This document shows positions 2,603 through 59,634 of a DNA stretch of 64,000 nucleotides, piece by piece. The notes below the pieces were generated by a model. The model was not told where the DNA came from and ran no database searches. It saw nothing but the letters and a program-made list of their open reading frames with translations. Made by a program: the position numbers and the translations under genes. Source of the stretch: an uncultured Verrucomicrobiae bacterium (lineage in GTDB: Bacteria > Verrucomicrobiota > Verrucomicrobiia > Limisphaerales > UBA11358); contig CAVXQV010000011.1 of assembly GCA_963764035.1 (NCBI GenBank), positions 105,042 to 169,041 of the forward strand, in the 5' to 3' direction. Positions within the stretch are counted from its first letter, which is position 1. Every line of letters begins with the position of its first letter.

Positions 2603-2706
2603 TTTTTGGCCAAAACAGGCCGAAAACAGCGAAAAACACGCCTTCCAACGCCCGGACCGTAGGAATTGATGAATTGGGCGCAAGTTGCCCGGCTGGGGCG
2701 GGTTCC

Positions 2707-2820
2707 GGCCACGGTTAAAGGCCAAACATCAAACTTGACCTTGCCCGCCGGTGGACGAATGCTGATGGCATGAAATGGAAAGCAACCCGTTTGCCTTCGC
2801 CAACGCCTGAAACCAAGACA
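2707..2820 (+). promoter_or_regulatory. Conserved 114-nt leader element (copy 1 of 2) with a sigma70-like promoter TTGACC-N17-AATGCT reading into the cassette
   Basis: Its first ~85 nt are about 90% identical to the reverse complement of 52028..52141. The -35 TTGACC is at 2735..2740, followed by a 17-nt spacer and the -10-like AATGCT at 2758..2763. Promoter activity is inferred from sequence only. Confidence 0.35.
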
Positions 2821-3330
2821 CAGGATAGGCTGAATATAGCGCCGTCCATGATCTGTTAGGCATCATCACACGTTTATGCGCTATCTCGTCACTATTTTAT
2901 TTGTGCTGGTAGTTCTCGTCGCCTGTTCACGCAAGTCGGATATTTCCCAGCGCGACCCGCAACGTGAGCAGCGTGATATTCTTCTTCATGCGCAATCGGA
3001 GGCTTTGCAGGCCAAGATTGTCCTGACCCAGTTGCACGACGGACACCTTACCAATGCGCTGGAGCTTTTGGAGATGCAGATAGACACATCGGTTATTATG
3101 ATTGACCATTCTTTGCCGAGCCTTTCCGGCGCACAGCGTGACGAGGCTTTGGGCACGCTACGGCTGCTTAAAGCGTATCGAGAGGCACACCCGCGACAGC
3201 AGGAGGCAGTTATTCCGGATGCCGACAAGGAAGACGCAGCGGCACTGATCCAAGCAAGCCAAAAGGCGTCCCAAATTTTGAGCGATTTGAAATGAACCTG
3301 ATGCCTAATATGAGAATAGGCTGAACGGCT
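2821..3330 (+). mobile_element. Integron-cassette-like unit C1: one ORF between attC-like left and right elements
   Basis: Left element 2821..2864 is CAGGATAGGCTGAATATAGCGCCGTCCATGATCTGTTAGGCATC. Right element 3300..3330 is GATGCCTAATATGAGAATAGGCTGAACGGCT. The 9-nt ends TTAGGCATC/GATGCCTAA are perfect inverted repeats. ATAGGCTGAA is a direct repeat at 2825..2834 and 3316..3325. Both elements recur at 50411..52027 and 57265..57692. Confidence 0.55.
2876..3295 (+). CDS. Hypothetical lipoprotein (cassette ORF, 139 aa)
   Basis: The ATG lies 14 nt after GTTAGGC. The N-terminus MRYLVTILFVLVVLVACSRK has a signal peptide and lipobox Cys. GC is visibly lower than in the neighbours. I do not recognise a family. 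Confidence 0.7.
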   Translation: MRYLVTILFVLVVLVACSRKSDISQRDPQREQRDILLHAQSEALQAKIVLTQLHDGHLTNALELLEMQIDTSVIMIDHSLPSLSGAQRDEALGTLRLLKAYREAHPRQQEAVIPDADKEDAAALIQASQKASQILSDLK

Positions 3331-3349
3331 TGATCCGCCCTCCGCGCAT

Positions 3350-3490
3350 TTATTCATAGCGCAGGGATTCACCCGGGTCGAGGTTTGCACCTTCCACGCG
3401 GGATTGGTTCCAAAGACAATTCCCACGACGGAACACAGCACCAGCCCCGGCACAATCCCGTCCACCGGGTTGGCGGAGGCGCACACCCGG
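3350..3490 (-). pseudogene. Relic of a MacB/FtsX-type permease C-terminus
   Basis: The reverse strand reads [38 protein letters not shown] with one frame slip. This matches the end of the permease at 49149 ([37 protein letters not shown]). No upstream continuation is present. Confidence 0.7.
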
Positions 3491-3545
3491 ATCCCGAAGT
3501 TGCTGGGAGCGAGTAGCGGTGGCGCCTCGTCACCGTAGGGTGGCT

Positions 3546-3640
3546 GCGACGCCCTCGTCGCATGATTCACTGTGTGGGAAGCCGCTGATTCGACCGGCGA
3601 CGAGGGCGTCGCCAACACAGTTCTGCGACGGGGCGTCGCA
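3546..3640. repeat. Three REP-like hairpins of one family (GCGACG-N4-CGTCGC)
   Basis: GCGACGCCCTCGTCGC at 3546..3561, GGCGACGAGGGCGTCGCC at 3596..3613, TGCGACGGGGCGTCGCA at 3624..3640. Confidence 0.7.
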
Positions 3641-3678
3641 GCTACCTGCATTCCGTTCGGAATTCGGATTGAATCCGC

Positions 3679-5057: not shown

Positions 5058-6766
5058 GACAAGGCGGGTGGGCGGCGGCGTAGGTCTCGGCGTTCTGCGA
5101 CTCGGCTTCGAGCAGCAGCTTCCGGCGCGTCGGGCGCAGGTGGAAGATTTTGAAGATGACGACGAAGATGATGCCGAACGACGTGGAGGAATAGGCCGCC
5201 ATGAGGCTGAATTTCACCAGCCCCAGCGAGGCGATGATCAGCGACACGATGGTGCCCACGAAGCCGAGATAAAGCCCGGCGTCGAACAGGTGGTCTTCAT
5301 TTTCCAGCAGCTTGAGCTTCATGCGCGGCGGCACATTTTGACGGCGGATTTCCGCCAGTTTCACGAGGCACGAAATGTAGAGCAGCGCCTGCAGCACGAA
5401 GAACACAAGCAGCGTCAACACGATGGTGGGGTTCCAGGTATTTGGGTTCATAACGGTTTGTTTGAGGCCGGCGAATCCCGCGGGGACCGTCCCGCCCGTC
5501 GTGGGCAGGATCAGTCGAAGGGAAAAACTTCCCTTCTGGCTTTCCTGGGCGAGAAACGGCTCGCTCAAGAGCAACACCACCAGCAGAAACGCCAGCGAAA
5601 ATAAAAATTCGCGCGCGAGGTGAACCCCGCGCACTTGCAAGCGGACGCTCCAACGGCGAAACGGCGGGCCGCGCGCAATGCAGCGCCGCCGCGGCAAAAA
5701 AGCCGGCGAGCAGATATAGGAACCACTTTCCCGCCAGCGCCAGCCACGGATTTTGAACCGCAACTCCCGCCGCGTAATAATAAAACGCGCCGAACGGATT
5801 GAACGCCGCCACCCGGCGCTCGACCGGCGGATCGTAAAATTGCTGCTGCCGCTTCGCCAGTTCGGCCACGCCGCCCGCGCCGTAACGCAGGCTCGCGCCG
5901 AGATTGGACAGGCCGGTGTCCTTGAACTTCGCGAGATAATCCGCCACGTCCGCCGGCCGGCCCGAAAGCTGAACGGCGGCAAAGAGCACGGGCAGTTTGG
6001 CGTCGGCGGCGCGGGCGTCGTCCGCGAGCCGGTGCAGCGTGCCGGCGTCGGGAATGTCCGCGACAAATGCCGTCAATTGGTCCCAGTTGAACCGCTCGCC
6101 CAGCGACAGGAAATCCATCAGCGACTGTTCCAACGGTTCGGAGCCGGAGCCGCGATTGGCTTGCGACGCCAAGTCGGAAATGTCCCGGCTCAAGCCCGCC
6201 GGCAGATGGTTGCCGTCCAAAAGCAGGCCGCCAATGCAAACCGCGGTGTCGAAGGACTGGCCGGCCGCCGACGATGAGGGCGGGAACAGGCTGGTGTCCT
6301 TGAGCGACCGGGTGCGCAACAATTCCTGGACCGACTGCACCGTCGAGCCTTGCAAATGCGCCAGCGCCGCCTCGCGGTTGCCCTGGCGGATGATGAAATC
6401 GGCGAGGGGGGAATCTGGTGCGGCCAGCGCGGATTCGTTGCCGAAAAGCCCCGCCACGCGCCCGTCGTCGCCCCAAGCCAGCGCCGCCGGATTTTGCCGC
6501 GCCAAATTTGTGATGGTGTCCGCCAGCCGGTCCCAGGCGGGCATGCCCGCCGCGCGGGCGGCCTGCACGAGCATTTGCGCCACGCCCAATTTCCGCTCGC
6601 CCGCCAGCATTTGGCCATGGCCCAGCAACGATGGGCCGTTGGCGCCCGCCCGCTTCAGGACGCCGGCGTCCACCGCCCGCAGATGCATGGGCACGAGCAG
6701 GCCGCAGACCAGCAGCGCCAGTCCAAGGACGGCGCAAATAACGAATGCCAGCCACCGGAAGTTCAT
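5054..6766 (-). CDS. Polytopic membrane protein with a MotA/TolQ/ExbB-like C-terminal channel region; frame broken at least once
   Basis: The ATG at 6766 is preceded by AAGGAG. An N-terminal TM helix (WLAFVICAVLGLALLVCGLLV) is followed by a ~380-aa soluble region and several TM helices. LYLGFVGTIVSLIIASLGL...SSTSFGIIFVVIF resembles the MotA/ExbB signature, judged by eye only. The frame switches near 5620 (ORF 5297..6847 to ORF 4969..6066). The 3' end at 5054 assumes a further slip around 5060-5100. Confidence 0.5.
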
Positions 6767-6880
6767 GGTTTGCTCCTTGAAACTTTTGACTGCGCCAGGC
6801 CAATGGCCGTTCAAAATCCGTTTTGAAACAGAACGCCGCCGGGGCACCCAGCGACCTGTCCCCGGCGGAATGACCCCGAA

Positions 6881-8150: not shown

Positions 8151-8215
8151 TCGTCCTCGTCGTCGTCCTCGTTCTCTTGATCGAATTTCGAGGACGAGGA
8201 CGAGAACGAGGAGGA
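8151..8215. repeat. REP-like long hairpin (TCGTCC/TCGTCG)n ... (GAGGACGAG)n, copy 1 of 2
   Basis: TCGTCCTCGTCGTCGTCCTCGTTCTC TTGATCGAATT TCGAGGACGAGGACGAGAACGAGGAGGA. A near-identical element lies at 56523..56592. Confidence 0.8.
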
Positions 8216-8222
8216 TTGAAAA

Positions 8223-21281: not shown

Positions 21282-21594
21282 CGCCCGCGCCGCTGAAGGG
21301 TCGCAGACGATAACGCGAAGTGCAAGGCGGAACGAAAATCGGCGCGGGCGCATATCAAGATTTGAGGGGGTATCAGTGATGGAAAACTCTCGAATTGACA
21401 ACCATTTCATTAACACCCTGTTTTAGCCGAATCCAAGTAGTTGAAATTGCCCTTCGGAGGCATGAGGGTTGGCTGGAAGGTTCTCCGGCCCGTGCCTGCC
21501 CGACCGTATTTAGTCCAGCCGCACTGCTCCAAAGGTCAAATCCCAAAAATTAGAGGGGTTTCAGCCAAAACCGGCATTCATTCCTTCGGCATTG

Positions 21595-21850
21595 GAGCAC
21601 ACTCTTTCGCCGTTCGAGCGCGCTCTTTTCGCGTGGGAGCATGCTCCCGCGCCGTTCGCGTGCGCTCCCACCGCGTTGGAGCGTGCTCTATCGCCGCGGG
21701 AGCACACGCCTGCGGCGTGGGCGTGCGCTCTTTTCCCGTGGGCGCATGCTCTTTTCCAAAAAGAGCACACTCTTTTCCCGTTGGAGCGCGCTCTTTTTCC
21801 GTTCGAGCATGCTCTTTTCCCGTTGGAGCATGCTCTTTTTCCGAAAGAGG
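21595..21850. repeat. Degenerate tandem array R2, unit exactly 21 bp, 12-13 units
   Basis: Consensus GGAGCRYGCTCTTTTCCCGTT, containing the 10-bp palindromes GAGCATGCTC and GAGCGCGCTC. GAGC or its variants sit at 21595 + 21n for n=0..12, with no indel. All three + frames and two - frames are open. Confidence 0.88.
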
Positions 21851-22065
21851 AGGCGATTTTGGGCGCTTTTTGCCGGCTTTCACGGCTTGAATACGCTAGA
21901 ACAAGTTTATTTTCAACGAGTTACGCTGTAGTGGTCAAAAATAGCCACTTTTTGGGGGTGCCGGGCGGGCGTTCCGATGCCACCCGCCCGCCCCGGCGAA
22001 AGGGACGCCTTTGGAAGGGCGCATATCAAAAAAAAGCCATTTGCCGCCGGGCGTTCAAGCGCGCT

Positions 22066-29211: not shown

Positions 29212-29484
29212 GATGTCGCAAAATCATTTTGGGACATCCCCCCGGAGTTTTGGGACATCGCAAAGCCAGCTCGTGACATCCCATCGTCGTTTCGCGACGT
29301 CGCACCCCTGGCTTGGGACATCCCAAAACCGCGGTGAGACATCGCGAAATCCTGGCGCGACATCCCGCCGGCGTCTCGGGACATCGCAAAGTTGGCGGGT
29401 CAGATCCCGGCGTCGTTCCGCGACATCGCACCCTTGGCCTGGGATATCGCAGGGCCGCTTTGGGACATCGCCGCCTGGTTTCCT
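29212..29484. repeat. Degenerate tandem array R3, 21-bp phase with 42-bp and 126-bp higher order, 13 units
   Basis: GACATC or variants sit at 29212 + 21n for n=0..12. Units mostly alternate GACATCCC and GACATCGC. Units 2-7 resemble units 8-13 pairwise. The array ends 95 nt before the kinase start. Confidence 0.88.
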
Positions 29485-39154: not shown

Positions 39155-39625
39155 AGGATGAGGGCGGGCGTAAAACACAAAATGATTTGGTTGCAACGAC
39201 CGTCCTCACCCCGGCCCTCTCCTCCGAGGAGAGGGTGGAACTGCCGCCGCCGCCCTGACAATCCACGCGCCGGATTTGCCGGATGGCCAACTGCATCACC
39301 GGAAACGCCCGCAGGCTGTTCCTTCTCCCTGGGGGAGAAGGTCAGGATGAGGGCGGGCGTAAATCACAAAACAATTCAGTTTTAACGACCGTCCTCACCC
39401 CGGCCCTCTCCTCCGAGGAGAGGGTGGAACTGCCGCCGCCGCCCTGACAAGCCATGCGCCGGATTTGCCGGATGGCCAACCGCATCACCGGAAACGCCCA
39501 CAGGCTGTTCCTTCTCCCCGAGGGAGAAGGTCAGGATGAGGGCGGGCGTAAACCACAAACCAATTCAGTTTTAACGACCGTCCTCACCCCGGCCCTCTCC
39601 TCCGAGGAGAGGGAGCACCCGCCCG
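39155..39625. repeat. Tandem repeat, 189-bp unit, about 2.5 copies, each unit carrying two REP-like hairpins
   Basis: AGGATGAGGGCGGGCG starts at 39155, 39344 and 39533. Each unit contains the hairpins CCTTCTCC-N5-GGAGAAGG and CCCTCTCC-N6-GAGAGGG. Confidence 0.9.
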
Positions 39626-40533: not shown

Positions 40534-40900
40534 TCAAGTGGCTGTCAACTAACCGGTTGCCGGGTATGGCAGTGGGCAAGTTGAATTCAACTGACGGTCT
40601 GCCATGTATGGGAGGGGGCAAGTTGAATTCAACTGACGGTCTGCCATGTATGGGAGGGGGCAAGCTGGATTCAACTGATGGGTTGCCATGTATGGGAGGG
40701 GGCAAGTTGGATTCAACTAACGGTCTGCCATGTATGGAGGGGGCAGTGGATCAACTGATGGGTTGCCATGTATGCAGGGGCGAGTTGGATTCAACTGACG
40801 GTCTGCCATACATGGCAGGGGGCCAGTTGAATTCAGCCAACGCCCTTGGCGGTGTCAAGGGAGGGGGGTTGAGACCGGCTGGCGTGCCGGGCGACGGCGG
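40534..40900. repeat. Tandem array R4, 42-bp unit (2 x 21), about 9 units, decaying at both ends
   Basis: Unit GGCAAGTTGAATTCAACTGACGGTCTGCCATGTATGGGAGGG, with the palindrome GTTGAATTCAAC and the near-palindrome CCATGTATGG. GAATTC/GGATTC sits at 40583, 40625, 40667 and 40709. Later units carry small indels. Confidence 0.88.
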
Positions 40901-47876: not shown

Positions 47877-49149
47877 ATGCATCTGCGGCCAACCATCGTC
47901 CTGCTGCTCGGCGAAATCCGCGGAAAGCATTTCGATGGCCTTGAACGCGATCATCGGCGCACAAGCTGCGCTCCGCGCTCACGCTGCTCGGCGTGTTGAT
48001 CGGCGTGTTTTCCATCATCGTCGTGATGACCGCCATGCGCGTGCTGGAGCGGAACATCGAAGACCAACTTGAGCCAGTTGGGCAGCCAGACGTTTGCCAT
48101 CCAGAAATGTCCGGCAGGTCCAGTTCGGCAACAGTTCCGATTGGGAAAAATACTGGCGGCGCAAGAACATCACGCTCGAACAGGGCGCAAGCGGTCGCGG
48201 AAAAGGCCACGCTCGCCGCCGCCGTCGGCGTCGAAGGCACTTTCTGGGGCGGCCAGATCTCAGACCCGCTACGCCAAGACCGCGCCCAACGTCCAGTTGC
48301 TCGGCGACACGCCCGGCAGTTTCCCGGCGCACAACTGGATCATTGACGAGGGCCGCCTTTTTGACGACAGCGACGTGGACAACGCCCGCAGCGTTTGCGT
48401 GCTGGGCAGCGCGCTGGCCAAAACGGTTTTTCCCTTCGGCTCCGCCCTCGGCGAGCAACTCAAAATCAACGGCATCAATTACGCCGTCGTCGGCGTGCTC
48501 GCGCCCAAGGGCGGCTCGGTCGGCGGCAACCAGGACAACTTCGCCGTCGTCCCGCTCACCACGGCGCTCCACCGCTACGGACTGCGCTGGAACGGATTGA
48601 GCATTCTGGTCCAGGCGCGCAGCTCCGCCGTCTACGCCGATTGCGAGGAACAGGTGCGCGGCATCCTGCGCGACGCCCGCAAGGTCCGGCCCGGCGACCC
48701 GGACGATTTTGAACTGTATCTCCAACGACTCGCTGATCGAACAATTCAAGACCTTCACCCGCGCCGTGCGCATCGGCGTGGCGGTGGTCAGCTCCATCGC
48801 GCTGCTCGCGGCGGGCGTCGGCATCATGAACATCATGCTCGTCTCGGTCACGGAACGGACGCGGGAAATCGGCGTCCGCCGCGCCATCGGCGCCAAGCGG
48901 CGGAACATCATGGCGCAATTCATCATGGAAGCCGTCGTGCTGTGCGAAGTCGGCGGCGTCATCGGCGTCGTGCTCGGCATTCTGGGCGGCAACGTCCTCG
49001 CCTGGTTCATGAAAGTCCCGCCCGCCATCCCGGTGGACTGGATTGTGCTCGGGCTGGTGCTGTGCTCCGTCGTGGGCATTGTCTTCGGCACCTATCCCGC
49101 GTGGAAGGCGGCGAACCTCGACCCGATTGAATCCCTGCGCTACGAATAA
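47877..49149 (+). CDS. MacB/FtsX-family ABC permease 2; frame broken at least 5 times
   Basis: Motifs: KLRSALTLLGVLIGVFSIIVVMTAM; LKINGINYAVVGVLAPKG; [38 protein letters not shown]...GTYPAWKAANLDPIESLRYE*. Confidence 0.82.
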
Positions 49150-49151
49150 AG

Positions 49152-50239
49152 ATGGCCGGGCCTAAAAACAGCGGCTACCTGCGGCAATTGGATGGTTTGC
49201 GCGCCTTGTCCGTCGCGGCCGTCGCCTGGAGCCATTGGCGCGCCTATTGGTTCCGGGAATCCTCCGTGCCCTGGGCGGAATTTGGCGTTGAAACCTTTTT
49301 CGTCATCAGCGGCTTTTTAATCACGGGCATCCTCCTGGACAACCGTTCAGAATCATCGAAGCCCTTTGTCCTGCGGCAATTTTACGCGCGCCGGTTCCTC
49401 CGAATTTTTCCGCTGTTCTACGCGACCCTTGTGATCGGGTTCGTTCTGCGCGCCGACAGCCTGCGTCAAACGTTGTTTTGGCACGCCGGTTATTTGTCCA
49501 ACATCTATTTTTACCTTTGGGGCTGGTGCGGGCAATTGAGCCATTTCTGGTCGCTGGCGGTGGAGGAACAATTCTACCTGTTCTGGCCGCTCCTGATGAT
49601 TTTCCTGCCCAAACGCTTTTTGCTGCCGGCGATCCTGGCCGGCATCGGATTCGCCCCCTGTTTGAAACCGCCATGGATTCGTTTTATCCGGGGCATTCAG
49701 CGCAGGTGTCGGCCAGCGTTTTGATGCCCAGTTGCATGGACGCCCTGGGCATGGGCGCCTTGCTCGCTTACGGCATCAGAAACCAATTTCCCATGAAACG
49801 CCTGGCCTTGATCCTTCTACCGGTTGGAATCGCCGGCTACGCCTTGTGCAATCATTTCGGCGCGTGCAAAGCGGCCGGACGGCTGGCGGAAGATTGCGTC
49901 TTGGGCTGGCTGGTTTATTCCGCCGCCCAAGGTTTTCGCGGACCGTTCGGATGGTTTCTGGAATGTGCGCCGATGAACTATCTGGGCAAAATCAGCTACG
50001 GCCTGTATGTCATACACAATTTCGCCGTCTCCATTTGCACGTCCTTGATACTTCGATTGGGAAGCCCCGATTGGCTGGTCAGACTTTACAACATCCCCGT
50101 GGTGCGAATCCTGGCATTCACCGGCGTGACCGTGGGACTGGCCGCTTATTCATGGCATCGGTTTGAAAAGCCGATCAACAATCTGAAACGCAAATTCCCA
50201 TACCCCGTTGCTGCGGCAACGCCTTCGCCCGGGCCTTGA
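49152..50239 (+). CDS. Acyltransferase family 3 (OafA/YrhL-like) membrane protein; one frame break near 49660
   Basis: Motifs: LDGLRALSVAAVAWSH, FFVISGFLITGIL, HFWSLAVEEQFYLFWP, GKISYGLYVIHNF. The pieces lie in ORFs 49152..49724 and 49478..50239. It starts 2 nt after the permease stop. Confidence 0.82.
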
Positions 50240-50251
50240 AACTGCCGCGCA

Positions 50252-50376
50252 CCATTCCGTCGGACAGGATTGCGCTGGGGCTGGGGCTGTGCTCCCTCGT
50301 GGGCATTGTCTTCGGCACCTACCCCGCTTGGAAGGCTGCGAACCTCGACCCGATTGAATCCCTGCGCTACGAATAA
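50252..50376 (+). pseudogene. Duplicated 3' end of the MacB/FtsX permease gene (about 90% identical to 49025..49149)
   Basis: It reads ...IALGLGLCSLVGIVFGTYPAWKAANLDPIESLRYE* and has no upstream gene body. It forms a direct repeat bracketing the acyltransferase gene. Confidence 0.85.
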
Positions 50377-50459
50377 ATTCGCGGGGAAGGATTGAATGCA
50401 AAGGAGATTGAGCCGTTCAGCCTATTCTCATATTAGGCAGCGCATATGGCTGCGCTGCG

Positions 50460-51029
50460 TCAATCTCTTGGTAGCAGCCCCAAATGCTTCTCAATAATAC
50501 TGGTCGTAATTTCATCCGAATAGTTTGGACATAACTCATATGATCTCTTCAAACTGTAAGACCTCTTGTCAAGTAATGAGTAATCGAATGTCTCCATGTC
50601 CTCAATCCGATCCCCGTTCCGAAACTCTCGCAGCAATGTGGGACTCGAAATCACGCCGTTTCCGCCATCGTAGTAACTGCCATCCGGCAGTTTGCTCAAA
50701 ACGTGATCACAAATCCCATTGGTTGTCATGATAAACGCGATGCAGACCTTATCATTGAACTTCTCGTTCCACTCTTCGTAAAACAGCTTGGCAAAACGAC
50801 CACAAGGCCCCCGGTCAATTCGTGGCCACCCATCCACATATCCGTAGGTCAAATTGATTTCGTCCCTCAATCCATTCAGCACGGCCACCTGCTGATAGCT
50901 TAATCCTCTTGCTGGAGCAGTTTTATAAACAGGTAGTTGCCGGCAAGAGCATAGAGAGAAAACCAGCGTCATGATTATCAGAAACTTTTGCCAAGGTCGC
51001 AGCATCGTTAATTTGGTTTGTTTCATCAC
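50460..51029 (-). CDS. Hypothetical lipoprotein (cassette ORF, 189 aa)
   Basis: Signal peptide and lipobox (LIIMTLVFSLCSCRQ). Markedly lower GC. Followed by the hairpin GCAGCGCA-N6-TGCGCTGC. Confidence 0.7.
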   Translation of the reverse strand: MMKQTKLTMLRPWQKFLIIMTLVFSLCSCRQLPVYKTAPARGLSYQQVAVLNGLRDEINLTYGYVDGWPRIDRGPCGRFAKLFYEEWNEKFNDKVCIAFIMTTNGICDHVLSKLPDGSYYDGGNGVISSPTLLREFRNGDRIEDMETFDYSLLDKRSYSLKRSYELCPNYSDEITTSIIEKHLGLLPRD

Positions 51030-51054
51030 ACCGGCGCGGTGTTAGGCGACGAAA

Positions 51055-51915
51055 TCATTTCGAAACATCAAAGCTGGTGACCAAGCCATATCGAACCTCA
51101 CGATAACCGTTGCGCATCCTAGATGACTTGATGAATCGCTCTACAGCCGCGTCCAGCCAGCGTTGATCCGATGCGGTGATGAGAGTTCCACCGCTCGAGT
51201 GTATAATTACATAACCTGAATACATAAATGGATGGAAAGAGCGTGTCTCCAACCAAACACAACCGGCAGGAGGGTTGGTTTGCATTTCTGTGAGAGGAAA
51301 ACCAAATGCCTTCGCTAACTTCTCTGCCGCCTCACGGTGTGCTTTCGAAGCGTCTTGAGGTATTCCAATGTTTGGGCAGATACGATGCCACAGTAGAACG
51401 TCTGCGTAGGAACTTCCTAAATTCTCGATGAAATTATCAGCAACAACACGTTGAGGAGCGTTGGAAGCAACCAGCCGATCCCTCGCGGTCAGCAATGCCG
51501 CCCTGTCTTGCGTCAAAAAGGCTTTCATCGCCGCAACATTATCGTTCCAATTCGCTCCTAGATCAGAGGTTTTGTCGTAGCATATTGCCTGATCCAATTG
51601 TTCCACCGCCAGCGTGTTCCTGCCCGCCACTGCATACAATTGCGCCTCATGGAAGTGAAGAAACTTTTGCTGAGAAACCGTTAATTCCGGGTGCGCTTTT
51701 AGGTAATCACGAATCAGAACCGCAGCCTCAAAATACCGCCCACTGTCGTAAAGCACACGAAACCCAGAGCCATAAGTCTGATCAAAGTCACTGTAAGAAA
51801 GCGAAAGCATGGCTGTTCGTTCTCGGCTTTCTTGAGTCGCGCAACCTCCAACAAGTATGCTGAAGATCACAAGAACCAGTGACGTTACTACCGCTGATTG
51901 GATGAAACGACTCAT
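51055..51915 (-). CDS. Hypothetical lipoprotein (cassette ORF, 286 aa)
   Basis: Signal peptide and lipobox (LVLVIFSILVGGCATQ). Lower GC. I do not recognise a family. Confidence 0.7.
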   Translation of the reverse strand: MSRFIQSAVVTSLVLVIFSILVGGCATQESRERTAMLSLSYSDFDQTYGSGFRVLYDSGRYFEAAVLIRDYLKAHPELTVSQQKFLHFHEAQLYAVAGRNTLAVEQLDQAICYDKTSDLGANWNDNVAAMKAFLTQDRAALLTARDRLVASNAPQRVVADNFIENLGSSYADVLLWHRICPNIGIPQDASKAHREAAEKLAKAFGFPLTEMQTNPPAGCVWLETRSFHPFMYSGYVIIHSSGGTLITASDQRWLDAAVERFIKSSRMRNGYREVRYGLVTSFDVSK

Positions 51916-52027
51916 ATCACCTCATAGACACCGACCACACAGTGTTTTGTATAACTATTTTTATTGTGCTTGGTCCCGACATCGCAGCCTAACAGAACGT
52001 GGGCGGTGCCGTATTCAGCCCATCCTG

Positions 52028-52141
52028 TTTCATGGCTTTGAGTGTTAGCGGAAGCAAACGGGTTGCATTCCATTTCATGGCGTCAGCATTCGTCCACTGG
52101 CGGGCAAGGTCAAGTTCGATGTTTGGCCTTCAGCCGTGGCC
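52028..52141 (-). promoter_or_regulatory. Conserved leader element (copy 2) with TTGACC-N17-AATGCT reading into cassette unit C2
   Basis: Its reverse complement aligns with 2707..2820. The -35 is at 52113..52108 and the -10-like hexamer at 52090..52085, both on the minus strand. Confidence 0.35.
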
Positions 52142-52342
52142 GTCACGGTCATTTGATGCCGAAGCGTTTTTTGACTTCGGCATGGGTGAGGCGCGGTTTG
52201 CCTTCGTCGCGCACGCGCGCTTCGGTCAGGTCCGGATAACCGAATCCACGCCTGTCCTGCGCAAGCCGGCTCGCGCCGCGTGGCTGGCAACTGCATGGAA
52301 CCGGTTTAATCCGTCCCTCCGTGATTGAACCGCGGCTTTTAG

Positions 52343-56450: not shown

Positions 56451-56522
56451 CGCGGGCAAGAGTAAAATTTCCGGACGGCACTTGCAATTCGGCATTTTCG
56501 GTGCAAGTTAAGCGGCAACAAA

Positions 56523-56592
56523 TCGTCCTCGTCGTCGTCCTCGTCCTCGTAATCGAAAACAAAAATCGAGGACGAGATCGAGAACGAGGAGG
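56523..56592. repeat. REP-like long hairpin (TCGTCC)n ... (GAGGACGAG)n, copy 2
   Basis: TCGTCCTCGTCGTCGTCCTCGTCCTCGTAATCGA AAACAAAA ATCGAGGACGAGATCGAGAACGAGGAGGA. Compare 8151..8215. Confidence 0.8.
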
Positions 56593-56614
56593 AAAATAAA
56601 CGAAAGAGAAAATT

Positions 56615-57059
56615 ATGTCATTGCACACACCTGATTTGACGAAGTTCCCGCCGCGCAGCCCGCGCGTGCGGCTGGGCGGTTACGTGATTCTGCCGCGCTG
56701 CCTCGACAAGGGCCGCGCGACGCTGGCCGGCAAGAACGGCGAGTATCATTACGCCTGCCCGCTCGACCAGGATTTCCTGGAATTTGCCGGCATTGATCCC
56801 GAGGAACTGAAAAAGCAGCTTGGCAAAAGCGACAGCGAGGTTTTGGAATGGATCAGCGCCAACGCGAAGCACAAGCACACCGCCGGCGGAAATCGCCGCG
56901 TGGTCGGCGTTGCGGAACAGAGCGCGCCGGACAGTCCCGGAATCGCGCGAGCATTTCAACGAAATCCACAAAAACGCCGCGCCCAAACGCGCGGACATCG
57001 CCTCCTGGTTTGACTTGCTGGATTTGGACGACTACGTGAGCTTTGGCGGGAAAGCCTGA
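56615..57059 (+). CDS. DUF5069-family protein; one frame break near 56885
   Basis: PRSPRVRLGGYVILPRCLDKGRATLAGKNGEYHYACPLDQDFLEFAGID. After the slip it continues AEIAAWSALRNRA...SWFDLLDLDDYVSFGGKA*. Confidence 0.7.
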
Positions 57060-57074
57060 AAGCTCCGGTCAATC

Positions 57075-57150
57075 GTAGCGGCGGTCGGCAGACCGCCGCA
57101 TTTCTTTCTTGAGATTTGAACAATGCGGCTCTCTGCCGAGGAGCCGCTAC
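57075..57150. repeat. Long imperfect hairpin (8 bp / internal loop / 7 bp / internal loop / 7 bp, with a 21-nt loop)
   Basis: GTAGCGGCGGTCGGCAGACCGCCGCAT ... ATGCGGCTCTCTGCCGAGGAGCCGCTAC. It lies between two copies of the DUF5069 gene 3' end (57032..57062 and 57147..57177, 28/31 identical). A second strong hairpin lies at 57200..57235. Confidence 0.75.
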
Positions 57151-57264
57151 GCGAGCTTTGGCAGCAAAGCCTGAAAGAATTTACGATTGGCGATTGACGA
57201 TTTACGAGCGCGGGAAATTCGCCCGCCTCGTAAATCCGTCGTGGCAGCGGGAACGGCGAGACGA

Positions 57265-57692
57265 TTGCAGCCTATCCTTATATTAGACGCCCCCCGTTCT
57301 TCCGCTGGGGTCCACGAACGGAAATCTTTTCCGTAGGTCGTCCAAAGATGAGACGTGGCGACTCGACACCAAGCTGGTAGCTTCAGCTAGCGCGACACCG
57401 ATAGGATCAACACTTGGATCAGGAGCGCAGTTACGACGCAGAGTGAATGTTTCCGCACCGCGCTTGAGACCGAGCCAGCGCCTCGGGCTTGGTGTAACAA
57501 TGGGTTCCAGCCATACTCCGTCGGCGTCGTAAAACACAATGACTCCTGACTCAACGTCACGAGAGTAGGAACCCCATTCCCGAAGAAGCTGGTCCTCGTC
57601 TTCGAACAGTCTCACTTCGCCGTATTCAAGAACGCCGATGATCATCTTTTAGCGTCTAACTGATAATGGTCAGCATGATATTCCGTCTATCC
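57265..57692 (-). mobile_element. Integron-cassette-like unit C3: one ORF between attC-like left and right elements
   Basis: On the minus strand, the left element 57692..57651 reads GGATAGACGGAATATCATGCTGACCATTATCAGTTAGACGCT, 29/41 identical to 2821..2861. The right element 57290..57265 reads GCGTCTAATATAAGGATAGGCTGCAA. The 9-nt ends TTAGACGCT/AGCGTCTAA are perfect inverted repeats and differ from those of C1 in a compensating way. Confidence 0.5.
57283..57645 (-). CDS. Hypothetical protein (cassette ORF, 120 aa)
   Basis: The ATG lies 8 nt after GTTAGAC+GCT. The TAA stop lies inside the GTCTAAT box. GC is lower than the flanks. I do not recognise a family. Confidence 0.6.
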   Translation of the reverse strand: MIIGVLEYGEVRLFEDEDQLLREWGSYSRDVESGVIVFYDADGVWLEPIVTPSPRRWLGLKRGAETFTLRRNCAPDPSVDPIGVALAEATSLVSSRHVSSLDDLRKRFPFVDPSGRTGGV

Positions 57693-57762
57693 TAAATTGC
57701 GGGGCAAACCTATTTCCGCTGCAAATTCTGTCAAGCCAGTTTCTTTAATCAGATTTAAAGAG

Positions 57763-59634
57763 TCAAACCTGCGGCTGAGCTTCCGCCGGAGCGGCGGGCG
57801 GGGCCACGGGCGCCTCGCTTTTCCACGCCTCGATTTTTTCGATGCGGTGCCGGTGTTTCGCGCCGTGAAATTCAAATTCCACTTCCTCGCCGACTTTGTG
57901 GTTCAGCAGCGCCGCGCCGACGGGCGAGAGGTAGCTGATGACGCCCTTGTCCGGGTCGGAATCCCACGCGCCCAGAATCGTGAACGTCTCCGGCTGGTTC
58001 GTGCCGAGGTCGGTGGCCAGCACGACGCTGCCGATGGCGACGGCGTCGGTCGTGGTGTTGGAGAAATCCGTGCCGCGGGCGCGCATGAGCTGCGCTTCCA
58101 GTTCCTGTTTTTGGCGCATGAGGACTTTCTGCATTTCCTTGGCGGCCTTGAATTCGTGGTTTTCGCGCAAGTCGCCGTAGCTGCGGGCGATGGCGATTTC
58201 CTTCGAGTTGGCCGGGATTTTCTTCTGCACGAGATCCTGATACTCGACGCGGCGGCGTTCGAGGCTGTCCCACGAAACGAGCAGCGAGCTCTCCTGCTTG
58301 GTCTGCTCGCCGGTGATGAGCGACTGGATGGCGGGATGCGCCTTGACGAGCCGCGCGAGCAGCGACCGCTTGTCCATGTCGTCGAACACGGTCGAAAGTT
58401 GCAGCGCGCGCGTCAAATCCTTGATGACCTCGATGTCGGCGGACGCGGTCAGTTCGCCGAGCAATTCCTGGTCGTCGAGGATGAATTCGCGCAGGCGGTT
58501 GGAGCGTTTCTCGTTGAACTGGTCGCGTTCCATCGCCGTGAGCATGGCGCGGAACACTTCCGGGCCGAGGATGTCGGCGAAGGAATCGTTGCGGTCGCGG
58601 CCGAGCCAGAGCAGCAATTCGCTGCCGGCGGTGTGCTGGCTGACGAGCCGCGCCAGCGTTTCCTTGAGCGAATCCATCTTGCCGCCCTGGATGAGCAGGC
58701 TGGCCAGCTCGCGGCATAATTTCGCGGAAACGGCATTCAGCGCGCCGCGCACCATTTCCTGCCAGCGGTCGGGGTTCGCCGCCTTGAACGATTCCAGCGC
58801 GCGATGATGTTTGGCGGCGGGAACTAGTTCGAGCACCGGGCCGAACTTGACGCCGTCCTGCAGCCAGATTTGCGCGTCGGTGATTTCATCCGCGGCGCGG
58901 GCGGCAGTCCCGCGGCGGCGCGCAATTCGTCGCGCGCAAACACCGCCTCCAGCGCGACCGCCGGCTGCGTGCGCTGGTGCGACACGATGTCCGCGTTCAA
59001 GCGCCGTGATGATTTCATTGGCCGCCGCCGCCTTGTCGGTCAAATCCGAAGCCATCTTGAGAACTTCCGCGACCACCAGAATGCGCGCCCTCAATCCCTT
59101 GGCCGCGCGGAAATCCGCCAGCACGCGGTCCTGCAGCGACGTTTCCTGCGCCTGAAACACGACCGGCTCGGTCTTTTTCGTCGGCACGATGAAGTGGCCG
59201 TCTTTTTTCATCTCGCGCTTGGCGGTTTCCCACCATTTCCGCCAGTCGTCGCGGATGACATCGGGCACGAGCACCTGCTGGATCTGGTCCGCCGTCGCCC
59301 GGCCGCCGAAGCTGTTCAGCACCACCTTGATCAAATCGAGGTGATGCGCGGCCAGTTGGCGGACGGCTTCGAGGTCGTTGGTCTTGCGGGCGAGGATGTG
59401 GTCCTTGGGAATCGGCTTGAGCGTTTCGGCGGCGAACGCCAAATCCATCGTGTGCCCCGGCTTGCCGGGGAAATCAATCGTGAACCGCGCGAACACCGTG
59501 TCCACCGTCTTGATTTTGCCGAAACCCCAGCTCCGGTGCATGCAGCAGCCGCCTTCCGCCAGTTTGGTCAGCGGTTCGACATGGCGTCCCTCGATTTTTC
59601 CCGCCGCCGCCAATTTTTCAAATTCTTCTCTCAT
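57763..59634 (-). CDS. Large GreA/GreB C-terminal-domain protein with a ~470-aa N-terminal extension; probable compensated double frameshift around 58900-59010
   Basis: C-terminal motifs: IARSYGDLRENHEFKAAKEMQ ... FTILGAWDSDPDKGVISYLSPVGAALLNHKVGEEVEF. The Arg/Gly-rich stretch ERGHRVAPAHAAGGRAGGGVCARRIARRRG reads sensibly in the frame of ORF 58824..59018 (NADIVSHQRTQPAVALEAVFARDELRAAAGL). Confidence 0.75.
   Translation of the reverse strand: MREEFEKLAAAGKIEGRHVEPLTKLAEGGCCMHRSWGFGKIKTVDTVFARFTIDFPGKPGHTMDLAFAAETLKPIPKDHILARKTNDLEAVRQLAAHHLDLIKVVLNSFGGRATADQIQQVLVPDVIRDDWRKWWETAKREMKKDGHFIVPTKKTEPVVFQAQETSLQDRVLADFRAAKGLRARILVVAEVLKMASDLTDKAAAANEIITALERGHRVAPAHAAGGRAGGGVCARRIARRRGTAARAADEITDAQIWLQDGVKFGPVLELVPAAKHHRALESFKAANPDRWQEMVRGALNAVSAKLCRELASLLIQGGKMDSLKETLARLVSQHTAGSELLLWLGRDRNDSFADILGPEVFRAMLTAMERDQFNEKRSNRLREFILDDQELLGELTASADIEVIKDLTRALQLSTVFDDMDKRSLLARLVKAHPAIQSLITGEQTKQESSLLVSWDSLERRRVEYQDLVQKKIPANSKEIAIARSYGDLRENHEFKAAKEMQKVLMRQKQELEAQLMRARGTDFSNTTTDAVAIGSVVLATDLGTNQPETFTILGAWDSDPDKGVISYLSPVGAALLNHKVGEEVEFEFHGAKHRHRIEKIEAWKSEAPVAPPAAPAEAQPQV

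Follow-up and report, generated by a model that had tools for sequence, protein, structure and literature searches.

Integrons are described as one intI-attI platform plus an array of gene cassettes, of which the distal ones are mostly silent. In class 1 and 2 integrons, rare and unusual cassettes carry a truncated attI in place of attC, and the integrase IntI1 is reported to excise and insert them (Gonzales Machuca et al. 2026, PMC12901181). For the class 1 ΔattI type the proposed origin is an L x R'' crossover, and attC sites are stated to span 57-141 nt (PMC12901181). Verrucomicrobia are among the bacteria in which integrons have been reported, and IntegronFinder has separate classes for clusters without an integrase (CALIN) and for empty integrons (In0) (PMC4889954); attG insertion, as PMC12901181 cites it from Loot et al. 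2024, places cassettes outside integrons. Here we analysed a 64,000-nucleotide stretch of contig CAVXQV010000011.1 from an uncultured Verrucomicrobiae bacterium of the Limisphaerales (hereafter the window), which carries three cassette-like loci, and we focused on the third, a short open reading frame (ORF) between two conserved elements. Comparison with relatives indicates that locus 3 is probably an integron gene cassette seated in a satellite attI, that is, an attI copy without an adjacent integrase gene.

The GC content of the window is ~62%, and cassette loci 1 and 2 hold low-GC ORFs between the same two elements as locus 3, the parts of which are as follows.

57707-57734, minus strand: promoter-like TTGACA-N16-TAGGTT upstream of the attI-like element, read from sequence
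57654-57692, minus strand: left element (attI-like), made of direct repeat 1 (DR1), L box, spacer and R box
57680-57692, minus strand: DR1 of the left element, GGATAGACGGAAT
57666-57671, minus strand: L box GACCAT, followed by the spacer TATCA
57654-57660, minus strand: R box G|TTAGAC
57656-57676, minus strand: leader ORF, decayed at locus 3 to ATGCTGACCATTATCAGTTAG
57277-57659, minus strand: cassette proper, TTAGACGC...ORF...GCGTCTAATATAAGG, its ends an inverted repeat of 8 bp plus G·T
57283-57645, minus strand: cassette ORF of 120 aa between a GreA-family gene and a DUF5069 gene, its stop being the TAA inside the GTCTAAT box
57265-57288, minus strand: right element, made of an R''-like box, the spacer ATAAG and GATAGGCTGCAA
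57282-57288, minus strand: R''-like box GTCTAAT
57265-57276, minus strand: GATAGGCTGCAA, interpreted as the R box that belonged to the attI when empty

The initial annotation of this DNA had placed a minus-strand ORF at 57283-57645 between element families shared with loci 1 and 2, with boxes GTTAGAC and GTCTAAT where loci 1 and 2 have GTTAGGC and GCCTAAT, and both statements were borne out: the ORF encodes 120 aa, and its left and right elements fall into the families of 2706-2861/3302-3335 and 51987-52142/50406-50439 (156 nt at 85% and 34 nt at 94%). It was also right that the two ends have changed together, but the "perfect 9-bp" complementarity it described comes down to eight Watson-Crick pairs (TTAGACGC/GCGTCTAA) with G·T on either side, the plus strand reading TTAGACGCC and not TTAGACGCT. 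The promoter-like TTGACA-N16-TAGGTT that it had noticed upstream of the left element is present at 57734-57707 on the minus strand; a consensus promoter scan did not call it, its -10 hexamer matching at 3/6 positions. Scanning the whole window at the Rfam gathering threshold returned no family.

Elements of the same kind are concentrated in one bacterial group. A scan of one genome per species (596 Gb) with the 19-nt right-element pattern CTAATATRAGRATAGGCTG, which occurs three times in the window, gave 73 stretches, ~65 of them in Limisphaerales or subdivision-3 metagenome-assembled genomes from peat, bog and soil; the remaining 8 look like chance matches in low-GC Firmicutes and Bacteroidetes. 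The 7-mer GTTAGRC by itself was at chance level (4 found versus 3.8 expected). Over the ~65 loci the right element has the consensus GCCTAATATGAGGATAGGCTGCA with the core form GCCTAAT-ATGAG-GATAGGCTGCA, and in the left element a promoter and (A/G)TGAAAAAGGATAGGCTGCA are followed, after 13 nt, by an L box (GCCTAC, GTCTAC or GTCCAT) and, after a spacer of 5 nt, by GTTAGGC. All 38 left elements matched have 32 nt from the direct repeat to GTTAG, as does locus 3, a second direct repeat lies 21 nt upstream at some sites, and promoters of the TGCTGGACA-N17-TACAGT type stand at the same distance from the left element at other family sites. A 14-codon leader ORF, MKKDRLxNxxSIIC* (35 units listed), has its start codon shortly ahead of the repeat and uses the TAG of GTTAGGC as its stop; in most units the cassette ORF starts 11-30 nt past this stop, and many cassette ORFs end at the TAA of the right box or at an upstream TGA. 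A candidate small ORF running through the right element (CCT AAT ATG AGG) was rejected, as the box simply has stops in all three frames.

The ends of the segment between the two elements covary. End complementarity, which the initial annotation had proposed to follow in further copies, was kept in 35 additional units, in which the segment begins with (G)TTAGGC plus NNNN(N) and ends with the complement of these variable nucleotides plus GCCTAA(T), giving 11-12-nt inverted repeats whose variable positions change in concert, including 8, 9 and 11. At positions 8 and 9 the combinations GC, AT, CG and TA all occur, with pairing in 89% of units, against 74% at position 11; at positions 8-12 we counted 139/175 Watson-Crick pairs, compared with 77 ± 5 after shuffling of partners and a maximum of 97 in 2000 shuffles. 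Joint changes reach into the 7-nt box itself, as in GTTAGCC/GGCTAAT of locus L007, GTTAGAC/GTCTAAT of the window and GTTAGCTGTCAT/ATGACAGCCAAT of L074. Position 1 is G opposite T in 33/35 units, and sense-strand wobble pairs showed no excess at the variable positions of the 35 units. Canonical cassettes likewise extend their R''/R' pairing 3-5 nt into the cassette.

In two relatives, L013 and L055, a tyrosine recombinase gene (344-394 aa) directly abuts the left element in divergent orientation. Its products are integron integrases according to TIGR02249 (419 and 386 bits, cutoff 265) and have the IntI-specific extra segment ...ARKYPNAQREWGWQWVFPS...RHH; because intI abuts the left element at these two loci, the left element is attI. 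The order intI, promoter, DR2, DR1, L, spacer and R is common to L013, L055 and L197, and window positions 57654-57692 align with it. The direct repeat found at both ends is simply DR1 and R of attI, as in attI1, the structure of which is summarised in PMC12901181. Several sites occur per genome, intI stands at only one site in the best-sampled genome, and L046 and L050 retain only the first codons of intI.

The same relatives carry canonical arrays, and the right element closed all arrays that were sampled. The L013 array has five cassettes and four canonical 99-nt attC sites, running from inverse core GCCTAAC to core GTTAGGC, and its last cassette is ended by the right element, not by an attC; L039, L008 and L066, with no intI nearby, have canonical arrays that also close with the right element. 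The 13 canonical attC sites that were aligned, from seven loci, share an R box of 7 bp, a spacer that stays unpaired and an L stem with a bulge, and 8 pairs have compensatory changes. Two cassettes of L040 are separated by a 19-nt mini junction, GCCTAATATCTG|TCAGGC, in which GCCTAAT-ATCT-G has the attI spacer, and the four-unit array of L057 has the order right element, terminator, promoter and left element between cassettes. The 5' boundary of locus 3 fits the core site GTTRRRY (GTTAGAC at 57654-57660). A canonical attC is absent at locus 3, where only GTCTAAT, a 5-nt spacer and GATAGGCTGCA are found, 24 nt in total, and the family form of this 3' piece, GCCTAAT-ATGAG-G, resembles GTCCAT-TATCT-G, an L box and spacer of attI. 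When the window was searched with a covariance model of the 13 sites, nothing significant was found, the best score (15.8 bits, E = 0.04) falling on an unrelated large hairpin at 3513-3645. The earlier idea of a cassette-type, integron-like insertion is thus upheld by the integrase, the canonical attC arrays and the empty sites of relatives, and its attC-type bulged hairpin is not.

The empty sites came from a metagenome scan for repeat-N20-24-GATAGGCTG, in which most matches were unrelated tandem repeats and 3 of >120 were relevant. In L197, an intI start 81% identical to the L013 IntI is followed by DR2, DR1 and GCCCAT-TATAAT-GATAGGCTGCG with no cassette, and the downstream flank is ~85% identical to that downstream of the L013, L055, L065 and L071 arrays; with intI and attI and no cassette, L197 is therefore an empty integron. 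L166 and L149 are empty satellites that read GTCTAC-TGTGAG-GATAGGCTGCA and GTCCAT-TACTG-GATAGGCTGCA. All three empty sites read L-spacer-GATAGGCTGCA, followed by the same downstream flank as at occupied sites, and the right element is therefore a hybrid of the cassette 3' end and the original attI R box. We had considered a split attC, in which the right and left elements make up a 50-nt site, R''-ATGAG-L''(GATAGGC)-13-L'(GCCTAC)-5-R', integrated via L''. This candidate was rejected because the empty sites have GATAGGCTGCA directly after the L-spacer, so that it is the attI R box and not L''; moreover, the reconstructed right-plus-left site, the fold of which the initial annotation had wished to compare with attC geometry, pairs only through the basal R''/R' stem. 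A target-duplication comparison of left and right spacers showed no similarity, the right spacer being fixed by the search pattern, and locus-specific matching of DR1 with R0, the corresponding repeat of the right element, gave a weak signal at most, as 93 and 63 of 2000 shuffles reached the observed identity.

The occupant of the locus 3 site differs from genome to genome. We located GreA-family homologues together with their contigs and compared the intergenic content between the two genes that flank locus 3, listed here with the content found in relatives.

57763-59634, minus strand: GreA-family gene, 623 aa, convergent with the DUF5069 gene
56615-57059, plus strand: DUF5069 gene, frameshifted
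L074, GreA 90% identical to that of the window: M48 peptidase cassette
L075, GreA 90% identical: lipoprotein of about 200 aa
L076, GreA 91% identical: methyltransferase plus rhomboid-like protein
L077, GreA 83% identical: 161-aa ORF
L081-L083, GreA 85% identical: 123-aa ORF with decayed ends
L078/L079, GreA 78% identical: no left or right element, intergenic hairpin only
L084-L086, GreA 79% identical: no left or right element, intergenic hairpin only

The window and L074, L075, L076, L077 and L081 thus hold six different cassettes at one site, and those of L074-L077 lie between the same left and right elements, each with its own matching ends. Given two more distant lineages without the module and a subclade with varied cassettes, the module is an insertion in one subclade, in which the cassette has since been exchanged repeatedly; the uniform intergenic content that the initial annotation had named as contrary to an insertion was not seen, relatives showing either different cassettes or no module. 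The TTGACA...TAGGTT sequence is conserved in L081 and sits on a ~70-nt segment that is common to the window and L081 and missing from L074-L077, in which the left element begins 2 nt past the GreA stop codon. Five genomes likewise have five unrelated ORFs at another orthologous site, which is flanked by a response-regulator gene and a convergent gene, and homology breaks exactly at GTTAGGC| and |GCCTAAT; in the close pair L016/L023, the stretch from the repeat to GTTAGG stays with the flank. Among 58 cassette ORFs next to right elements there was only one related pair, and all read forward from the promoter.

Two hairpins lie between the cassette module and the DUF5069 gene.

57196-57240, no strand assigned: ancestral intergenic hairpin between the convergent genes, outside the cassette module
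57075-57150, no strand assigned: hairpin of 76 nt resembling a repetitive extragenic palindrome (REP-like), within 57032-57177 and bracketed by a 31-nt duplication

Their description in the initial annotation was accurate: the duplicated DUF5069 3' end (57032-57062 and 57147-57177) is identical at 28/31 positions, the 76-nt hairpin has two internal loops and three 8-bp stems (-26.2 kcal/mol, z = -6.5), and the second hairpin folds at -17 kcal/mol (z = -5.5). The link it drew from them to the insertion did not survive comparison. A homologous AATCGTAAATCG-type hairpin is the sole intergenic content in the empty relatives L084-L086, and the hairpin at 57196-57240 is therefore ancestral intergenic sequence. 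The 76-nt hairpin is not an attC: it gives no hit with the covariance model of the family's attC and recurs as a REP-like repeat elsewhere, near-identical and with the same internal loops, upstream of the L050 attI-like site and beside the L078 GreA stop. Copies also stand at the DUF5069 end in L074, L077 and L081 and are missing in L076 and L084. Nor is the duplication a cassette footprint, as L076 has the cassette module with neither hairpin nor duplication. L076 shows the distal copy (57147-57177) with downstream AAAGAATTT... as the original DUF5069 gene end, which assigns the duplication to the hairpin insertion. Insertion of the REP-like hairpin is, on this comparison, an event separate from the cassette, and it brought or created a replacement DUF5069 3' end. 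Members of this REP-like family have ends GTAGCGGC...GCCGCTAC and three stems of 8 bp each, with internal loops whose positions are conserved; they correspond to no Rfam family, lie at differing intergenic positions among relatives, and were found as follows; the L075 copy is interrupted by another palindrome.

Window: 57075-57150 and 3513-3645
L050: ~3587-3659, reverse strand
L074: ~6700-6780
L077: ~6085-6160
L078: ~5375-5455
L081: ~5745-5805

Taking the comparisons together, we propose the following cycle for the satellite sites. The empty attI has the form DR2-DR1-L box-5/6-nt spacer-G|ATAGGCTGCA, and a cassette the form TTAGGCxxxx-ORF-x'x'x'x'GCCTAAT-ATGAG-G. Once the cassette is circular, its ends would meet in a palindromic mini-attC of 19 nt, [x'GCCTAAT][ATGAG][G|TTAGGCx], which as a single strand may form a hairpin with a 10-11-bp stem and as a duplex may serve as an attI-type simple site. 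For locus 3 the circle junction is predicted to be GCGTCTAATATAAGG|TTAGACGC and the empty junction ...CCATTATCAG|ATAGGCTGCAA, also written ...GACCATTATCAG|ATAGGCTGCAATCG; the predicted 27-mer circular junction, GGGCGTCTAATATAAGG|TTAGACGCTA, folds at -7.8 kcal/mol for the top and -7.2 kcal/mol for the bottom strand (z = -6.6 and -7.5). An IntI encoded elsewhere in the genome would act in trans and recombine the mini-attC with the satellite attI, and insertion would leave L-spacer-G|TTAGGCx on the left and x'GCCTAAT-ATGAG-G|ATAGGCTGCA on the right, which correspond to the left and right elements; a crossover at G|AT of the R box fits L197 and L149. The compensating end changes would follow because the two cassette ends must pair with each other. 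Transcription of the cassette may start from the promoter just upstream of attI, and the position of the leader stop, the TAG in GTTAGGC 11-30 nt before the cassette start, would allow translational coupling. Such coupling has been proposed for ORF-11 of attI1.

Several observations weigh against an integron cassette in a satellite attI at locus 3. By tblastn, the 64-kb window contains no intI. The 3' box is GTCTAAT or GCCTAAT and not RYYYAAC, with T and not C at position 7, and the attI R box has GAT instead of the canonical GTT triplet at the cleavage site. Neither a circular junction nor, within arrays, directly abutting mini sites of the ATGAG type were seen. The right spacer at the GreA site tracks lineage in part (TAGAA/TAGAT/TTGAA versus ATAAG/ATGAG), and the right spacer may thus be chromosomal, which would move the right crossover from G|AT to a point beside R''. 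The genome sample was picked by the right-element pattern, which biases any statement that every array ends this way; the GreA-site loci, found without that pattern, agree with the pattern-selected ones. The locus 3 leader ORF is decayed, and the proposed cycle leaves the first arrival of the whole module at a new chromosomal site unexplained.

Some of these points would equally suit a fossil platform, in which the satellites are dead duplicated integron remnants and old cassettes move between strains only by homologous recombination of the flanks. Apart from the window without intI and the decayed leader, this explanation draws on the degenerate DR1 of locus 3, the badly decayed ends of L081, a decayed remnant at window positions 21453-21480, and L046 and L050, which hold only the first intI codons. 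We consider it unlikely, since homology between L016 and L023 breaks exactly at the boxes with the attI spacer staying with the flank, 35 units retain the boxes and the covarying ends, attI is intact at known empty sites, and cassettes differ at GreA identities of 83-91%. An RNA-level device, in which the elements are 5' and 3' untranslated modules, the ends form a long-range mRNA stem for stability, processing or translational control, and cassette variety arises by other means, would account for the promoter and leader ORF upstream, for the leader stop inside the stem, and for G opposite T at position 1, which pair only in the sense strand or RNA; the right element can also form a small hairpin, GCCUA-N9-UAGGC. 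It is nevertheless very improbable, because the same covarying ends occur on canonical cassettes with a 99-nt attC as 3' neighbour, the elements are physically attI beside intI, the empty sites show them to be the halves of one recombination event, and the variable positions have no excess of sense-strand wobble. Least probable of all, to the point that we give it hardly any credence, is a non-autonomous transposon or invertible gene segment moved or flipped by an enzyme other than IntI: the 11-12-nt terminal inverted repeats and the direct repeat AGGATAGGCTG outside both ends, resembling a target duplication, would suit it, but this "duplication" is identical at every site and present once, as part of attI, in empty sites, the inner repeat positions covary and are not conserved, all 58 ORFs point the same way relative to the promoter with no sign of inversion, and no transposase is associated.

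Beyond the satellite attI reading of locus 3 itself, we tentatively put forward, as a broader picture that we hold to be slightly more doubtful than credible, a distributed integron in Limisphaerales-type Verrucomicrobia, in which one IntI would serve scattered attI copies, each with promoter and leader peptide and usually one cassette, so that many cassettes would be expressed at once and not kept as a silent stock, and in which the 19-nt mini-attC (R''-5 nt-R' plus a cassette-specific stem extension) would be used as an attI-like duplex or a bare hairpin. If so, mini sites at promoter-equipped docking sites could be birthplaces of new cassettes.

Loci 1 and 2 of the window have the following parts.

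2706-3335, plus strand: cassette locus 1, same architecture as locus 3
2706-2861 and 3302-3335, plus strand: left and right elements of locus 1
2823-2835, 2855-2861, 3303-3309 and 3315-3326, plus strand: DR1, R box, R'' and R0 of locus 1
2876-3295, plus strand: lipoprotein-like ORF of locus 1
50406-52142, minus strand: cassette locus 2
51987-52142 and 50406-50439, minus strand: left and right elements of locus 2
51055-51915 and 50460-51029, minus strand: ORFs of locus 2

The two ORFs of locus 2 are parted by the truncated 5' part of a canonical attC, GCCTAACACCGCGCCGG (51041-51047 onward), the canonical 5' part used for comparison being GCCTAACAAGTCGCCGGAGCC. Beside locus 2, a frameshifted acyltransferase gene (49152-50239) lies between copies of the FtsX 3' end (48986-49150 and 50213-50377, 87% identical), and a third FtsX 3' fragment (3342-3476) flanks locus 1; with such fragments at both, loci 1 and 2 are therefore paralogues that derive from a single module and its flanks and carry different cassettes. 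A similar duplicated downstream flank occurs in L034. Frameshifts split both the DUF5069 gene (56615-57059), which is intact at 147 aa in relatives, and the acyltransferase gene into two ORFs each, and these are probably long-read assembly errors or else recent pseudogenes.

The right-element remnant at 21453-21480, CATGAGGGTTGGCTGGAAGG, looks like a lost satellite site, and the 115 nt after it match the downstream flank of the L058 cassette locus at ~80% identity. Cassette loci are adjoined by tandem arrays of 21-nt period, in which the unit is a 10-12-nt palindrome plus spacer and the sequence varies between arrays: upstream of locus 1 (2372-2602), downstream of the decayed remnant (21595-21856) and downstream of the L058 cassette (L058 1370-1500). 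Further tandem arrays at 39155-39623, 40535-40864 and 29216-29467, with periods of 189, 42 and 63 nt, are unrelated to cassettes. Long hairpins rich in GACGAG/CTCGTC, ~65 nt and 75-80% alike, occur at 8151-8217 and 56521-56593, the latter as the leader immediately upstream of the DUF5069 start codon. In L006, L011, L030, L033 and L051, a conserved non-coding module of ~95 nt (…TGATGAAATGCAGGC…CATTGCCCCGCCTCnGnGGCGGTTGG…) adjoins the right element, placed between a variant R'' cassette end, GCCTCCTAAGGAGATAGGCG, and the normal right element; an opposite-strand gene in the CATTGCCCCGCCTC...GGTTGG module was considered and rejected, as it encodes only 8-21 codons.

Exact look-up of the 120-aa cassette protein returned no record, and Pfam, NCBIfam and PADLOC scans of four window cassette proteins gave no match. 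The protein has 19 homologues at 50-66% identity. One of them, P0130 (58% identical), is encoded on an unrelated 50%-GC contig (L210) between two canonical attC-like hairpins, GTCTAC...GTTAGAC and TCCCAAC...GTTGGAC, and the 120-aa family therefore travels as integron cassettes elsewhere too; two other homologues lie in ordinary contexts.

Set against the integron canon, the sites described here depart in that the docking site is multiplied across the chromosome, each copy comes with a promoter and leader ORF, and a hybrid site of 24 nt closes the resident cassette. Should the sites be active, parallel expression would replace storage in the cassette economy, an integron integrase would need a smaller minimal substrate, the mini-attC being far below the known 57-nt minimum, and finders that rely on attC would overlook an entire layer of genes carried by integrons in bacteria abundant in soil and peat. 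Natural pairs of occupied and empty sites and ~60 ORFan cassettes are available for testing the origin of cassettes and sites. Our literature searches brought up no earlier account of a chromosome with multiple promoter-bearing attI copies, of orphan or additional attI, of a conserved array-terminating hybrid site, or of Limisphaerales integrons.

Among described systems, the sedentary chromosomal integron shares with this family an IntI (TIGR02249, in relatives) whose gene diverges from an attI made up of two direct repeats plus L and R boxes, the boundary G|TTAGGC, homogeneous 99-nt attC sites in relatives, and promoterless ORFan cassettes in one orientation. By contrast, locus 3 has neither a nearby intI nor a canonical attC, several attI copies occur per chromosome, each having a promoter and a leader ORF of its own, the R box of the empty attI reads GATAGGC and not GTTRRRY, and arrays close with the conserved 24-nt hybrid site. 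CALIN, In0 and attG insertions resemble the present sites as integron-derived material away from an integrase, and L197 is an In0, and L039, L008 and L066 would score as CALIN. Locus 3, in contrast, has no attC, fits neither class and would be invisible to attC-based finders: CALIN comprises at least two attC sites with no intI, and the window holds no canonical attC, locus 2 having only the truncated 5' part. The locus 3 cassette also differs from attG insertions, since it occupies a complete attI copy that includes direct repeats, promoter and leader ORF and whose position is conserved between species. In the ΔattI-type cassettes (Partridge 2009; PMC12901181), too, the 3' site is not an attC but a short piece resembling the L box plus spacer of attI, and the architecture is likewise attI-ORF-(partial attI). 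In the Limisphaerales sites, however, terminal or sole cassettes have this arrangement as a rule, at many chromosomal sites of an environmental phylum, and the 3' box is an exact covarying inverted repeat of the cassette's own 5' end, abutting the original attI R box. The locus 3 type thus appears to be a variant of known integrons, consisting of satellite attI sites with mini-attC, ΔattI-like cassettes.

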